Source: Giardia intestinalis
Lineage: Eukaryota
Reading direction: 5' to 3' (one strand)
Assembly (NCBI GenBank): GCA_000002435.2
Contig: AACB03000028.1
Length of the DNA stretch: 15,856 nt
The notes beneath the pieces are model-generated. The model saw only the letters and a program-made list of their open reading frames with translations, made no database searches and had not been told where the DNA came from. Position numbers and translations under genes: made by a program. This document shows, in pieces, positions 2,042-5,782 of this stretch; position 1 is the first letter of the stretch, and each line of letters starts with the position of its first letter.

Positions 2042-3895
2042 TGGAGTGTGATATGTACAAAGGCCAGTAATGGACTGTGCACTGCTTGTAAGACAGATAA
2101 CAAGTACATATTCCAGAACAGGGCAGACAAGGTGACCCCTGGTAGTGAGTGCATCCTGTGCTCTGATATCAAGGGAGCGAATGGATATACGGGAGTGGCC
2201 AACTGTCTCAAGTGTACGGCACCAGGGAATGCAGGACCTGCCACGTGTAATACCTGTCAAGAGGGGTACTTCCTAAACAACAAGCTTTGTAAGCCATGCG
2301 AGGGGAACTGTGCCACCTGTGAGACATCGGCGACCCAGTGCACATCGTGTCCAGAGGGGAAGTACCTCAATGGGAATCAATGTACTGATAGCTGTGGTAA
2401 TGATAAGTATGCTGACCCGGAGTCGGGAACATGCAAGGCATGTAGTACGATACACGCAGAGTGCACGGCATGCTCCTTCGACAAGGCCACGGGGAAGCCA
2501 AAGTGCACTAACTGCGGGACCAATAAGACCCCCAGGACGGCCCTCGACGGGACATCGACCTGCGTGGCGAAGACGCTTGAAGGATGCGAGGGCGCTGACG
2601 AGGCCTTATTTATGAAGGAGGACAAAACGTGTGCTCTTTGTAGTGATGTGACAGATTCAACTCTTGGTAACGAAGGAAAGGCCAACTGCAAGACATGTAC
2701 GAAAACAGGAAGTGACAATCCAACCTGCTCAGCCTGTCTCGATGGATACTTCTTTGATAGTGGTACTAGTACATGTACAGACAAGTGTGGTGATAACTGT
2801 GCCACATGCTCTGTTGCTGGTGATCCAAATAAGTGTGAAACCTGCAAGACTGGATACTTCTTAGTAACTACTACAGATCAACAGGGGAAGAAGTGCGTCC
2901 CATGCGATAGCGTAGACGATAAGGGTCGCGAAGGCTGCAGTGTCTGCTCTAACAACGGTGCTTTCAAGTGCACTGACTGTAAGCCTAACTATCGCAAGGA
3001 GGGCAGTACTGGCTCTGTCACATGCACCAAGATCTGTGAAGATGATACTGCCTGTGGAGGAACTTCTGGTGCCTGCGATGCAATAGTGATTGATGATAAG
3101 GGTGTAGAGCATCATTATTGCTCATACTGTGGAGAAGCTAATACGTATCCTATAGATGGGAAGTGTAATAGTGCTAAAGCAAATAATCAATGTGATCAAG
3201 GTGTATGTACACAATGCACTAACAACTACTTCTTGTATATGGGAGGTTGTTACAAGGTTGATACAGTACCTGGACAACATATGTGCAAGACAGCAGCCAA
3301 CGGTGTCTGTACTGCTGTTAATGCCAACAATAGGTACTTCATAGTCCCTGGGGCAACCAATCAGAATCAGTCTGTATTGGCATGTAGCAACTCCCTTGGC
3401 ACACTAGTAGGCACTGGTGATACCTCTAAGGCATATGTGGGGGTAGATGGCTGTTCGGCATGTACGGCCCCAGCAGCTCCATCTGAGACTGGTATGACTG
3501 CTGCTGTGTGTACAGCGTGTACCAACAACAACAAGCCCAACCTGGCTGGGAGCGGGTGCTTCGCATGTACCGTTGACGGATGCTCGCACTGTGGAGCAGG
3601 CGATAAGTGCGAGGCCTGTACCAGTAAAGACCAGAGGCCGAACACAGACGGAACGAAGTGCATCGCCTGCAATATCGACGGGTGCGTCAGGTGCAGCGAG
3701 GAGAACAAGTGCGGCCAGTGTGGGGACGACTACAGGCTGGAGGGTGAGGCGTGCGTGTCCACCAAGCCCAGCGGGGGCAACAGAAGCGGCCTCAGTACTG
3801 GTGCCATAGCAGGGATCTCCGTCGCTGTCATCGCTGTCGTGGGGGGCCTCGTGGGCTTCCTCTGCTGGTGGTTCGTGTGCAGGGGGAAGGCGTGA
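2042..3895 (+). CDS. VSP cassette U2. It is an intact 617-codon ORF with one GGCY motif, ending in the transmembrane helix plus CRGKA. It has no ATG or signal peptide; the ORF opens directly after the TAG at 2039..2041.
   Basis: The ORF track gives 2048..3895, but its M is a GTG codon. The ORF extends to 2042 and the first in-frame ATG is about 180 codons in. The protein is cysteine-rich with CXXC pairs and ends ...[39 protein letters not shown]. Confidence 0.85.
   Translation, partial: WSVICTKASNGLCTACKTDNKYIFQNRADKVTPGSECILCSDIKGANGYTGVANCLKCTAPGNAGPATCNTCQEGYFLNNKLCKPCEGNCATCETSATQCTSCPEGKYLNGNQCTDSCGNDKYADPESGTCKACSTIHAECTACSFDKATGKPKCTNCGTNKTPRTALDGTSTCVAKTLEGCEGADEALFMKEDKTCALCSDVTDSTLGNEGKANCKTCTKTGSDNPTCSACLDGYFFDSGTSTCTDKCGDNCATCSVAGDPNKCETCKTGYFLVTTTDQQGKKCVPCDSVDDKGREGCSVCSNNGAFKCTDCKPNYRKEGSTGSVTCTKICEDDTACGGTSGACDAIVIDDKGVEHHYCSYCGEANTYPIDGKCNSAKANNQCDQGVCTQCTNNYFLYMGGCYKVDTVPGQHMCKTAANGVCTAVNANNRYFIVPGATNQNQSVLACSNSLGTLVGTGDTSKAYVGVDGCSACTAPAAPSETGMTAAVCTACTNNNKPNLAGSGCFACTVDGCSHCGAGDKCEACTSKDQRPNTDGTKCIACNIDGCVRCSEENKCGQCGDDYRLEGEACVSTKPSGGNRSGLSTGAIAGISVAVIAVVGGLVGFLCWWFVCRGKA
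2408..3895 (+). repeat. Copy 1 of a 1488-bp near-identical block A, the 3' three-quarters of a VSP. Copies 2 and 3 are at 9342..10829 and 14344..15829.
   Basis: Identity starts at TATGCTGACCCGGAGTCGGG and runs through the CRGKA stop. Only a few SNPs separate the copies, for example CCAAAG versus CCGAAG. Confidence 0.8.
3800..3892 (+). other. Representative transmembrane helix plus invariant CRGKA cytoplasmic tail of a VSP (U2). The same module ends every unit.
   Basis: It is a hydrophobic stretch of about 26 residues, [25 protein letters not shown], followed by CRGKA and TGA. An NRSG sequon lies just upstream. Confidence 0.7.
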
Positions 3896-3946
3896 CTTGG
3901 GTAGTGAATGCTGTACAATGTGTGATAGAGGGTGATAGTATGATAG
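3896..3946 (+). repeat. Representative 51-nt inter-unit spacer, the 'stop fence'. Equivalent spacers lie at 67..117, 1991..2041, 5783..5833, 8906..8958, 10830..10881 and 13947..14006.
   Basis: The sequence is CTTGGGTAGTGAATGCTGTACAATGTGTGATAGAGGGTGATAGTATGATAG. It contains TGATAG three times and, read in the frame of the flanking ORFs, 7 stop codons in 17 codons. Confidence 0.75.
3903..3909 (+). promoter_or_regulatory. polyadenylation signal AGTGAAT for U2
   Basis: It lies 7 nt after the TGA at 3893..3895. Confidence 0.7.
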
Positions 3947-5782
3947 TGGAGTGAGATATGCACAAAGGCTGAGGGAGGACTGTGCACTGCTTGTAATACA
4001 GATAGTCAGTACATATTCCAGAATGGGGCAGACAAGGTGACCCCTGGTGGGGAGTGCATACTCTGTCATGATGCCACAGGAGCGAATGGATATAAGGGAG
4101 TGGAGAGCTGCGCCACATGCACAGCGCCAGACAGTAACAAGGGGGCTGCCACGTGTACTGCATGCACAGAGGGATACTTTCTAAATAGTAACGGCGCATG
4201 TGAGAAGTGCAACGACTCTTGCCTGACCTGTGAGACGTCGGCGACCCAGTGTACCTCTTGTAAGGGAAATACGTTCCTGAAGGATAATGCATGCGTGAAT
4301 AGTGATGGATGCACTGGAAACACTTATGCTGACCCTATGACAATGACATGCAAGGAGTCTGGTATAGCAGATTGCACCGCGTGTGAGTACAACACGACTG
4401 TCAGCAAGCCCCAGTGCACCGCCTGTAACAATAAGAAGGTGAAGACAGAGCTGGATGGGACAACCACTTGCGTCGATGATGCTGGGTGCGCAACAGATAA
4501 CGTCGACGGATCCCACTTTCTGAGTGATGATAGCACCAAGTGCATATTATGCAGTGATACAACAACAGGAACAGAAGCAAACGACAAGGGGATTGCTAAT
4601 TGTAAAACGTGTAAGAAGAACGGAGCCAAGCCGACCTGCTCAGCTTGCCTCGACGGATACTTTGGTTCTGATACATGCACAGCTTGCGGTGCCAACTGTG
4701 CTACATGCTCTGCTGCTGGCAATGATCAGTGCACTAAATGCAAGCCTGGATTCTTCATGAAACAACCCGGCTCTGCTGGTAAGTGCTTCGCCTGCGACAG
4801 TAAAGCCGACAATGGCATCGAGGGGTGCTCCCAATGTAACAGCGGCCTAACCCCTACATGCACCGATTGCAAGTCCAACTATCGCAAGGAGGGAACCAAT
4901 CCGGTGAAGTGCACAAAGGCCTGCGAGGACCCCACGGCCTGCGGGGGGACGTCTGGGGCCTGCGGGGCGGTCGTCGTTGACAGCGCCGGGGCGTTCTCCC
5001 AGTACTGCTCGCTGTGCGGAGACCCCGCCACGTTCCCCATCGATGGGATCTGCACAGGAACTAAGGGTGACAACACCTGTGCCAATGGCGTCTGCACCCG
5101 GTGTGCTGCCGGGTTCTTCCTGTACATGGGCGGCTGCTATGATGTGTCGAAGGCTCCTGGCAGCCACATGTGCAAGACTGCCGAGGGAGGGAGGTGCACC
5201 GCCCCCAGCGAGAACGGCCGGTACTTCCTGGTCCCGGGGGCATCCAATACTGATCAGTCTGTCCTGGCCTGCGAGAACCCCCTAGGCACACTAGTAGGCA
5301 CTGGTGATACCTCTAAGGCATATGTGGGGGTAGATGGCTGTTCGGCATGTACGGCCCCAGCAGCTCCATCTGATGGTGGCATGACTGCCGCCACGTGCAC
5401 AGCGTGTACCAACAACAACAAGCCCAACCTGGCTGGGAGCGGGTGCTTCCCATGTACCGTTAGTGGATGCTCGCACTGTGGAGCAGGCGATAAGTGCGAG
5501 GCCTGTACCAGTAAAGACCAGAGGCCGAACACAGACGGAACGAAGTGCATCGCCTGCAATATCGACGGGTGCGTCAGGTGCAGCGAGGAGAACAAGTGCG
5601 GCCAGTGTGGGGACGACTACAGGCTGGAGGGTGAGGCGTGCGTGTCCACCAAGCCCAGCGGGGGCAACAGAAGCGGCCTCAGTACTGGTGCCATAGCAGG
5701 GATCTCCGTCGCTGTCATCGCTGTCGTGGGGGGCCTCGTGGGCTTCCTCTGCTGGTGGTTCGTGTGCAGGGGGAAGGCGTGA
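3947..5782 (+). CDS. VSP cassette U3. It is an intact 611-codon ORF ending in the transmembrane helix plus CRGKA, with no ATG or signal peptide.
   Basis: The ORF track gives 4037..5782 with a GTG as M. The frame is open from 3947, directly after the TAG at 3944..3946. The 5' leader reads EICTKAEGGLCTACNTDSQYIFQNGADKVTPGGECILCHD, homologous to U2. The last roughly 500 bp are identical to U2. Confidence 0.85.
   Translation, partial: WSEICTKAEGGLCTACNTDSQYIFQNGADKVTPGGECILCHDATGANGYKGVESCATCTAPDSNKGAATCTACTEGYFLNSNGACEKCNDSCLTCETSATQCTSCKGNTFLKDNACVNSDGCTGNTYADPMTMTCKESGIADCTACEYNTTVSKPQCTACNNKKVKTELDGTTTCVDDAGCATDNVDGSHFLSDDSTKCILCSDTTTGTEANDKGIANCKTCKKNGAKPTCSACLDGYFGSDTCTACGANCATCSAAGNDQCTKCKPGFFMKQPGSAGKCFACDSKADNGIEGCSQCNSGLTPTCTDCKSNYRKEGTNPVKCTKACEDPTACGGTSGACGAVVVDSAGAFSQYCSLCGDPATFPIDGICTGTKGDNTCANGVCTRCAAGFFLYMGGCYDVSKAPGSHMCKTAEGGRCTAPSENGRYFLVPGASNTDQSVLACENPLGTLVGTGDTSKAYVGVDGCSACTAPAAPSDGGMTAATCTACTNNNKPNLAGSGCFPCTVSGCSHCGAGDKCEACTSKDQRPNTDGTKCIACNIDGCVRCSEENKCGQCGDDYRLEGEACVSTKPSGGNRSGLSTGAIAGISVAVIAVVGGLVGFLCWWFVCRGKA

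Follow-up and report, generated by a model that had tools for sequence, protein, structure and literature searches.

The stretch of 15,856 nucleotides that was analysed (the window) holds a head-to-tail array of at least seven variant-specific surface protein (VSP) units from Giardia duodenalis, assemblage A and WB-like. Seven full units and one partial unit are present, every one on the + strand, and the spacers between them are 49 to 63 nt long. The full units are as follows.

118..1990, + strand: U1, a divergent pseudo-VSP, frameshifted and with internal stops
2042..3895, + strand: U2, a pseudo-VSP body of 617 codons, recognised by its open frame, its Pfam match and its match to a WB protein
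3947..5782, + strand: U3, a pseudo-VSP body of 611 codons, from WSEICTKAEGG to CRGKA and the stop
5834..8905, + strand: U4, a long pseudo-VSP (about 1,000 codons) spread across three frames
8969..10829, + strand: U5, a pseudo-VSP close to U2 in sequence, with one frameshift
10882..13946, + strand: U6, a long pseudo-VSP with an intact frame of 1,002 codons from 10938
14007..15829, + strand: U7, a near-copy of U2 with many single-base deletions

Pfam matches to PF03302 (VSP) were found in U2 (E = 3.5e-38), U3 (E = 1.9e-35) and U6 (E = 1.1e-84), that of U2 extending to the final residue before its stop, and the 120 homologues listed are, without exception, cysteine-rich surface proteins of Giardia duodenalis that also match PF03302. 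Positions 2612-3892 of U2 are 99.5% identical to WB protein XP_001705784.1 (P0018). CXXC motifs are abundant throughout the translations of U2, U3 and U6, which finish with a C-terminal transmembrane helix, a CRGKA cytoplasmic tail and a stop. The CRGKA-TGA pattern occurs six times in the window, with two further copies carrying a 1-nt deletion. Complete, expressible VSP genes (for example P0001; VSP417, VSP1267) have in common with the window units the CXXC-rich ectodomain, the GGCY motif, the transmembrane helix, the CRGKA tail and an extended polyadenylation signal, but they also have the first ~100 codons with the signal peptide, the PyAATGTT initiator and a long gene-poor region upstream, all of which are missing from the units.

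Each unit, closed at its far end by CRGKA-TGA, opens near the position of codon 103 in full-length VSPs. Full-length VSPs have MLLIALHL... signal peptides; none was found in the units, which start at WSEICT or WSVICT, corresponding to residue ~103 in P0001, one of the full-length VSPs (residue 103 for U3). No methionine occurs in the frames of the units before codons 131 to 263, the first in U3 being codon 131. The PyAATGTT (YAATGTT) initiator or Kozak-like element, reported at the start codon of 135 of 136 complete WB VSPs, has zero matches on both strands of the window; the closest sequence, CAATGTG, lies in the spacers ahead of a five-codon ORF. Because these start signals are missing, and in view of the literature, we consider the units most likely to be silent. 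Silence of the WB array units was put forward as a hypothesis by Adam et al. 2010 (BMC Genomics 11:424, PMC2996952), and pseudo-VSP arrays of G. muris have been reported to be untranscribed (Xu et al. 2020, Microb Genom 6:mgen000402).

We considered the possibility that the units are nevertheless expressed as proteins without signal peptides, from internal ATGs or a polycistronic transcript, as the old WB annotation implied. That annotation included a 427-aa protein (P0018) from the internal methionine at 2612, and its proteins P0004, P0009 and P0030 start at an ATG right after the polyadenylation hexamer. The newer WB annotation moves such genes to the pseudo-VSPs, however, and the units have neither initiator nor signal peptide, a polyadenylation signal lies between them and the G. 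muris arrays are untranscribed, so that expression of this kind is extremely unlikely.

The junction between U2 and U3 (3893-3949) can be divided into four parts.

3893..3895, + strand: canonical TGA stop of U2, which closes the 617-codon frame
3895..3911, + strand: VSP-specific extended polyadenylation signal ACTTGGGTAGTGAATGC, recognised by its match to the published consensus
3912..3921, + strand: array-specific conserved core TGTACAATGT, recognised in spacer alignments
3922..3949, + strand: 10-bp minisatellite of about 2.8 copies with consensus GTGATAGAGG, found by TRF

The signal agrees at 16 of 17 positions with the consensus ACUUAGRUAGURAAYRY, which lies ~6 nt 3' of the VSP stop (preprint 10.1101/2022.03.07.483299), and it includes the AGTGAA hexamer as well as an in-frame TAG (3902) and TGA (3905). 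Seven of the window's eight canonical stops are followed by it, each of these copies departing from the consensus at one position; the eighth copy (15829) has a 1-nt deletion. Alignments of spacers from four independent sources show the signal together with TGTACAATGT to be near-invariant; TGTACAATGT was not found downstream of three non-array VSP genes (L001, L002, L003). TRF returned period 10 and the same repeat consensus both in the window and in a sister array (L007). The number of copies of this repeat varies from spacer to spacer, and the minisatellite adjoins the next truncated VSP body.

The initial annotation described a 51-nt spacer holding seven in-frame stops, and the count is reproduced: read in the frame of U2, 3893-3946 is TGA L G TAG TGA M L Y N V TGA TAG R V I V TGA TAG, with seven stops if the canonical TGA is counted and a spacer of 51 nt without it. 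Three of the seven come from the stop codon and the extended polyadenylation signal, and the other four from two copies of the 10-bp repeat. The same stop-xx-stop-stop pattern is found at non-array and unrelated VSP 3' ends (among the unrelated ones L002, L003 and L004). The in-frame stops derive from the family's polyadenylation signal and a 10-base repeat and are not designed punctuation, as had been proposed. We regard it as very probable that the stop-rich 51-nt spacer is an ordinary junction between 5'-truncated, silent VSP copies in a tandem array of a kind already known from Giardia.

The density of stops does bear on another reading, which treats the array as effectively a single periodic ORF whose stops and TGATAG copies are kept by selection against read-through fusion proteins. 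Seven in-frame stops in 18 codons are more than composition predicts; a mononucleotide shuffle gives a mean of 1.5 against the six within one 51-nt frame (P ~0.002 for that frame, ~0.004 for any frame). The three frames are not all closed by TGATAG, however, as had been supposed: its copies in the minisatellite start at 3923, 3933 and 3941 and fall in frames 0, +1 and 0, reaching two frames only, and frame +2 has no stop inside 3893-3949, its first being the TGA at 3952. Moreover, no translated ORF requires protection from read-through, because the units lack a start codon, a signal peptide and an initiator.

The phase of the spacers across the window also bears on this reading. The remaining spacers are listed here.

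66..117, + strand: S0, 49 nt after the stop, 2 nt shorter and not a multiple of 3
1988..2041, + strand: S1; the 57-mer at 1988-2044 is identical to 3893-3949
5780..5833, + strand: S3; the 57-mer at 5780-5836 is identical to 3893-3949
8903..8968, + strand: S4, 63 nt after the stop, with four full 10-bp repeats
10827..10881, + strand: S5, 52 nt after the stop, 1 nt longer and not a multiple of 3
13944..14006, + strand: S6, 60 nt after the stop
15827..15856, + strand: start of S7, with a 1-nt deletion after the TGA, cut off by the end of the window

The intact lengths reported earlier for U2 and U3 are both multiples of 3 and were confirmed as stop-to-stop distances (3893 - 1988 = 1905 bp; 5780 - 3893 = 1887 bp). 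The frame that follows the stop at 3893 does open in phase, at 3947, but the sharing of frame between a stop and the next opening does not extend through the array. The seven spacers measure, in order, 49, 51, 51, 51, 63, 52 and 60 nt, so that five of the seven (length classes 51, 60 and 63) are multiples of 3, slightly above the expected 1/3, which favours a periodic ORF, and two are not. The canonical stops at 66, 1988, 3893, 5780, 8903, 10827, 13944 and 15827 lie in frames 3, 2, 2, 2, 2, 3, 3 and 2, and, measured from stop to stop, periods of 1922, 1924 and 1883 bp are not divisible by 3. The units thus occupy two frames, contrary to the suggestion of a single one. If assembly error accounted for the 49- and 52-nt spacers, the seven spacers of this one array would share a single phase. 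S4 has stops in all three frames, its TGATAG or TGATAA copies lying at 8933, 8943, 8953 and 8963, and this too is in keeping with a periodic ORF.

Sister arrays from independent short-read assemblies have the same family of spacers. They share the core, and yet their units are joined in phases 0, +1 and +2. One of them (L007, at 1877) has a frame open straight through the spacer, and its DNA encodes Asp-Ser in the 10-bp repeat; annotated proteins of the old WB set beginning MLYSDSDS... appear, judging from their protein sequence, to read the same repeat in this way. Since these short-read arrays are out of phase, the rule of a common phase fails even if the 49- and 52-nt spacers are artefactual. 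In assemblage B, the junctions of one family measure 111 and 113 nt. The giant, punctuated ORF is already largely refuted by the phases of the sister arrays, and selection against fusion proteins, given the stops that the polyadenylation signal supplies and the identity of spacers copied by descent, is an extremely unlikely cause of the pattern.

That the units arose by duplication, as the initial annotation also suggested, is borne out. The 57-mer at 3893-3949 recurs without mismatch at 1988 and 5780, giving three identical copies; the sequence after the stops at 3893 and 5780 is identical for more than 150 nt; and the 3' thirds of U2 and U3 are near-identical. From these matches it follows that whole units were copied, spacer included, so the phase they share goes back to a single inherited event, for which the prior chance was about 1/3, and the identical spacers count as one observation. 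A higher-order repeat of 5,054 bp at 93% identity is present as well, and blocks of identity between units begin ~115 nt before the stop and continue through the spacer. U3 contains 100%-identical blocks common in turn to P0004, to P0002/P0001 and to U2, a mosaic that we count in favour of exchange with other VSP genes and that is neutral as to the direction of exchange.

An assembly artefact of a repetitive region read in long reads could in principle have produced the in-phase identical spacers or the copy number of the array. Single-base deletions are clustered in parts of the window in a manner typical of long-read assembly error. Against U2, U7 has 8 mismatches and 29 deletions of 1-2 bases; every deletion lies in U7, 27 within 14067-14436, and a run of five G has become four inside the CRGKA codons upstream of two spacers. 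In view of these clusters the 49- and 52-nt spacers may be artefacts, and arguments from frame in this region need caution because the assembly has local indel noise. Such errors would destroy identity and phase, though, and not create them; U2, U3 and U6 keep long intact frames, and the same architecture and spacer core are found in independent short-read contigs (L007-L009) and in the literature. An artefactual origin is, accordingly, very unlikely.

The core ACTYRGGTAGTGAATGCTNTAYARTGKGTGATA hardly varies among eight spacers taken from four independent sources, whereas the 5' coding sequence that flanks it diverges. Core and minisatellite are conserved better than a purely neutral remnant might be. 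We weighed whether the core and the GTGATAGAGG minisatellite form a functional junction element, serving as a hotspot of recombination or array expansion or as the boundary of gene-conversion tracts; the variable repeat copy number and the blocks of identity that run from ~115 nt before the stop through the spacer would fit such a role. On the other side, the assemblage-B arrays (L004, L005, L010) have spacers unrelated to that of the window, so the motif is not needed for the array architecture, and recent common descent with concerted evolution could explain the conservation. This role is compatible with the ordinary-junction explanation that we prefer, and we consider it unlikely.

Arrayed silent or pseudogene VSG cassettes of Trypanosoma brucei have a short upstream repeat (70-bp) and a conserved 3' end, and can donate segments by gene conversion. 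Similarity to them is by analogy only, the protein family and the organism being unrelated. VSP expression switching in Giardia is epigenetic or post-transcriptional, and duplicative transposition into an expression site is not known there. It is doubtful that the polyadenylation signal, TGTACAATGTGTGATA and the variable minisatellite constitute a dedicated cis-element of assemblage-A pseudo-VSP arrays, a hotspot or conversion-tract boundary comparable to the 70-bp repeats. If they did, at least three full repeat copies would incidentally stop translation in all three frames.

Arrays of this kind have already been described. Adam et al. 2010 (PMC2996952) reported vsp linear arrays whose intergenic regions have a mean length of 60 bp and whose downstream members have no Inr, and proposed that the units are nonfunctional or serve as cassettes for recombination. 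In Xu et al. 2020 (Sci Data 7:38) they are called pseudo-VSP arrays. The window shares with them same-strand, head-to-tail units and spacers of ~50-60 bp, downstream members without PyAATGTT, signal peptide or proper start codon, and 3' ends in which CRGKA and the extended polyadenylation signal are conserved. Neighbouring units are close relatives that agree at 100% over long stretches, and one unit is 99.5% identical to a WB-annotated protein. We see no essential difference, and the window is an array of this kind; the internal anatomy of the spacer (core and 10-bp minisatellite) and its phase are not in those descriptions. The telomere-adjacent arrays of G. muris are likewise made of arrayed VSP copies without signal peptides and are reported to exchange sequence with intact VSPs (Microb Genom 6:mgen000402), but they belong to another species, whose tail motif is GCRGK.

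We hold with considerable confidence that, in a pseudo-VSP linear array of Giardia duodenalis, this spacer serves as the element joining one unit to the next. The units are VSP gene bodies, each of which has lost its first ~100 codons, and with them the ATG, the signal peptide and the PyAATGTT initiator, and that keeps the conserved C-terminus of transmembrane helix, CRGKA and TGA. The spacer begins with the extended polyadenylation signal, overlapping the stop codon and always placing TAG and TRA in its frame, and continues with the short conserved core and the variable-copy minisatellite. The array grew by whole-unit duplication, most likely through unequal homologous recombination between conserved junction blocks, each reaching from ~115 nt before the 3' end of a unit, across the spacer, to ~60 nt into the following one. 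Verbatim copying of the 51-nt spacer passed one arbitrary phase (a multiple of 3) from unit to unit. The units, most likely silent, probably supply sequence for segmental gene conversion involving other VSP genes, or else are decaying remnants. Anatomy, truncation, the lack of start signals, the variation in spacer phase and the mosaic identity are seen directly in the sequence, whereas silence of transcription, the mechanism of recombination and any role as a reservoir are inferred.

The correct annotation of this region is a Giardia pseudo-VSP linear array, neither a set of genes nor a giant ORF, and beyond that the finding has little importance. Were the spacer core and minisatellite to act as sites of array expansion or as the ends of conversion tracts, they would bear on how the repertoire of Giardia surface antigens diversifies.

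Read in the frame of U2, the array unit at 2042-3895 whose 617-codon open frame is closed by the canonical TGA at 3893-3895, the stretch 3893-3946 runs TGA L G TAG TGA M L Y N V TGA TAG R V I V TGA TAG, and the next open frame begins at 3947 with its phase unchanged. The initial annotation read this junction correctly: the stops are present as described, the 57-mer at 3893-3949 recurs at 1988 and 5780 with 0 mismatches, and the stop-to-stop distances of 1905 and 1887 bp are both divisible by three. It had gone on to propose a single, deliberately punctuated frame for the whole array. 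The observation is partly confirmed, being right locally and wrong as a rule, and the interpretation is upheld only for unit duplication.

Six stops in one frame of 51 nt exceed what composition alone would give (P about 0.002), and this excess is explained by motif structure, since TAGTGA and TGATAG each hold two same-frame stops and the poly(A) signal keeps a fixed phase relative to the stop codon. Positions 3895-3911 (ACTTGGGTAGTGAATGC) agree at 16 of 17 positions with the extended poly(A) consensus specific to variant-specific surface proteins (VSPs), ACUUAGRUAGURAAYRY (preprint 10.1101/2022.03.07.483299). This motif takes in the final base of the stop codon, and its TAG and TRA are therefore always in frame with that stop. 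The same stop-xx-stop-stop pattern is also seen at unrelated VSP 3' ends, at L002 (assemblage A2) and at L003 and L004 (another isolate), so that three of the seven spacer stops are a family-wide property.

Directly 3' of the poly(A) signal lies a short core, TGTACAATGT. Signal and core are near-invariant in eight spacers, which come from the window and three independent short-read assemblies in ENA (L007, L008 and L009), and the core was not found downstream of the non-array VSPs at the loci compared. A 10-bp minisatellite follows from 3922, with about 2.8 copies in this spacer; its TRF consensus, GTGATAGAGG, is present in 4.5 copies at window 8927-8971 and in 4.7 copies in L007. Two of the three TGATAG copies here are in frame 0 and supply the remaining four stops; by our own calculation, the chance that two of three copies share a given frame is about 0.26. 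The third copy is in frame +1, and frame +2 has no stop within the spacer, so the claim that TGATAG closes all three frames is wrong for this spacer. The spacer at 8903-8968, with four full 10-bp copies, does have all three frames closed. Scans of JGI metagenome contigs gave 0 matches to the spacer core and 0 to a generic VSP 3' end.

The idea that CAATGTG...TGATAG in the spacer is a decayed initiator and signal-peptide start (ATG TTG TTG ATA GCC, or MLLIA) is unsupported, as the sole real 5' end read (P15, at the non-array locus L001: TACAATGTTGTTAGTAGCAC) has only TACAATGT in common with it. A derivation of TGATAG by mutation from the GGCY codon pair TGC TAC was rejected, because the L007 repeats stand upstream of an intact GGA GGA TGC TAC.

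Within the window, spacer lengths are 49, 51, 51, 51, 63, 52 and 60 nt, the canonical stops fall in frames 3, 2, 2, 2, 2, 3, 3 and 2, in order, and of the seven stop-to-stop periods three are indivisible by three; the units thus do not share one frame. Spacer lengths not divisible by three had been named in advance as evidence against the periodic frame, and the 49- and 52-nt spacers are of this kind, with the caveat that the window carries assembly-type noise. U7 (14007-15829) differs from U2 by 8 mismatches and by 29 deletions of 1-2 bases, every one on the U7 side and 27 of them clustered in about 370 nt at 14067-14436. There is also a G5-to-G4 loss in the CRGKA codons ahead of spacers S0 and S4 (near 55-60 and 8890-8900). 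Pseudogene decay was rejected as a general reading of the window frameshifts, since the U7-U2 differences are almost only clustered one-base deletions, which look like unpolished long-read assembly error. The frames of U1, U4, U5 and U7 are therefore unreliable, and phase was accordingly checked at loci outside the window.

This census of junction phase was based on 11 loci, retrieved via protein look-ups. In the sister short-read arrays with the same core, phase is 0 at the start of L007, +1 at L007 1877, and +2 at L008 1872 and at L009 105 and 2114; at L007 1877 the +1 frame is open over the whole spacer. In L007, TGATAGT is translated as Asp-Ser within ...CDSAMWCG.... In the arrays of GCA_000498735.1 (another isolate, apparently assemblage B), two same-family junctions measure 111 and 113 nt, 2 nt apart. 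Neither phase nor in-frame stops are conserved in this spacer family. Neither selection against read-through nor deliberate punctuation is supported: three stops are family-wide and four come from the minisatellite, the sister arrays show all three phases and an open frame across a spacer, and the repeat is elsewhere read as Asp-Ser. Other arrays have different, longer spacers, of about 110 nt at L004 1786-1897 and L005 8308-8421 (both GCA_000498735.1) and about 520 nt at L010 378-900 and 2148-2670. The minisatellite is absent from the array spacers of these three loci, and the spacer motif is therefore lineage-specific.

Several old-WB proteins annotated as VSPs have unusual starts, which include MLYSDSDS(DS)AMWCGG... 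(the N-termini of P0004, P0009 and P0030) or, with P0024 also in this set, MIVLCG...DSDS. At the level of protein sequence, the first of these is consistent with an ORF that would start from the ATG just 3' of the poly(A) AGTGA and read the repeat open. All four N-termini look like translated spacer, with the TGATAG repeat as Asp-Ser; if so, these proteins would be annotation artefacts of array members.

The window contains seven full units, preceded by a partial tail, and eight spacers, all of them on the + strand. The Pfam family PF03302 (Giardia variant-specific surface protein) matches the intact frames at 2042-3892, 3947-5779 and 10938-13943 with E = 1e-35 to 1e-85, and all 120 of the homologues listed are Giardia duodenalis cysteine-rich surface proteins matching PF03302. 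Full-length homologues, of which P0001 (708 aa) is one, extend about 100 residues further at the N-terminus, where they carry a signal peptide (MLLIALHLVTSILAA...) as well as the first GGCY module. The first residues of the window units are exactly WSEICT/WSVICT, corresponding to P0001 residue ~103, and the earliest in-frame Met is at codon 191 in U2, 131 in U3 and 263 in U6. The PyAATGTT initiator/Kozak-like element of VSPs is reported to be present in all but one of the 136 complete VSPs of WB (preprint 10.1101/2022.03.07.483299); sought on both strands of the window, it gave 0 matches. The window units are 5'-truncated pseudo-VSPs. The old WB-isolate protein XP_001705784.1 (P0018, 427 aa) is 99.5% identical to window 2612-3892 and 9546-10826, and on this ground the window is assigned to WB or an assemblage-A isolate very close to it. 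The annotated start of this protein is the earliest internal Met of U2 (ATG at 2612), not a true N-terminus. An Rfam scan of the entire window found no RNA families. Long antisense ORFs span the spacers:

3404-4069, minus strand, long antisense ORF
5291-5956, minus strand, long antisense ORF
10338-11438, minus strand, long antisense ORF
1355-2260, minus strand, long antisense ORF
13685-14284, minus strand, long antisense ORF

They pass uninterrupted because the C-poor spacer is free of stops in reverse complement. Pfam gave no match for four long antisense ORFs, three of them the spacer-crossing 3404-4069, 10338-11438 and 1355-2260; the antisense frames probably arise as by-products of GC-rich coding sequence.

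Origin by unit duplication, as initially suggested, is supported by the identical spacers, by identity over more than 150 nt downstream of the stops at 3893 and 5780, and by a 3' third nearly identical between U2 and U3. Similarity blocks between units start about 115 nt 5' of each stop and continue through the spacer. These identities fit an array that grew through unequal homologous recombination, or through duplication, with conserved junction blocks as the sites of exchange. Either process would copy the spacer verbatim, and the three identical spacers thus count as a single event inherited by descent, for which a length of 0 mod 3 had a prior chance of about 1/3. A higher-order repeat of 5,054 bp (6835-10857 against 11889-15856, 93% identity) comprises one long and one short unit, with stretches of 1.2-1.5 kb nearly identical (1-3 mismatches) and divergent patches at 6835-7335 and 8835-9335. 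U3 (3947-5779) is sharply mosaic. It matches P0004 at 100% identity over residues 151-270 and P0002 at 100% over residues 271-360, where identity to P0001, a complete VSP, is 97-100%; identity to P0002 and P0001 remains at 90-100% as far as residue 420. Over residues 511-600 it is 100% identical to U2, the adjacent unit. Segmental gene conversion among VSP genes would be expected to leave such a pattern, which suggests that array units have exchanged sequence with VSP genes at other sites.

Linear arrays of vsp genes house over half of the WB repertoire, with intergenic regions averaging 60 bp and adjacent members that can reach 94% identity and share long runs without a difference; the Inr is absent from every downstream member and the start codon is missing in some (Adam et al. 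2010, PMC2996952). In those authors' proposal the units lack function and are either cassettes for recombination or genes that have been discarded. In G. muris, arrays of this kind are reported to be untranscribed and to exchange sequence with intact VSPs (genome paper, PMC7641422). The window shows all the testable defining features of this class, so its array type is already known. The sister arrays also hold "mini" units of 70-93 codons (L007 1935-2147; L009 1835-2116) that are reduced to the final Cys module, the transmembrane helix and CRGKA; in L007 (1676-2180) this portion makes up a tandem repeat of 268 bp. These units resemble the 224-bp vsp14 remnant of Adam et al. 2010. The cited linear-array literature contains no description of the conserved core or the 10-bp minisatellite. 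The sole mildly novel reading remaining gives these a role in recombination or as a boundary, and we think it improbable; they are a small descriptive addition to a known class of array.
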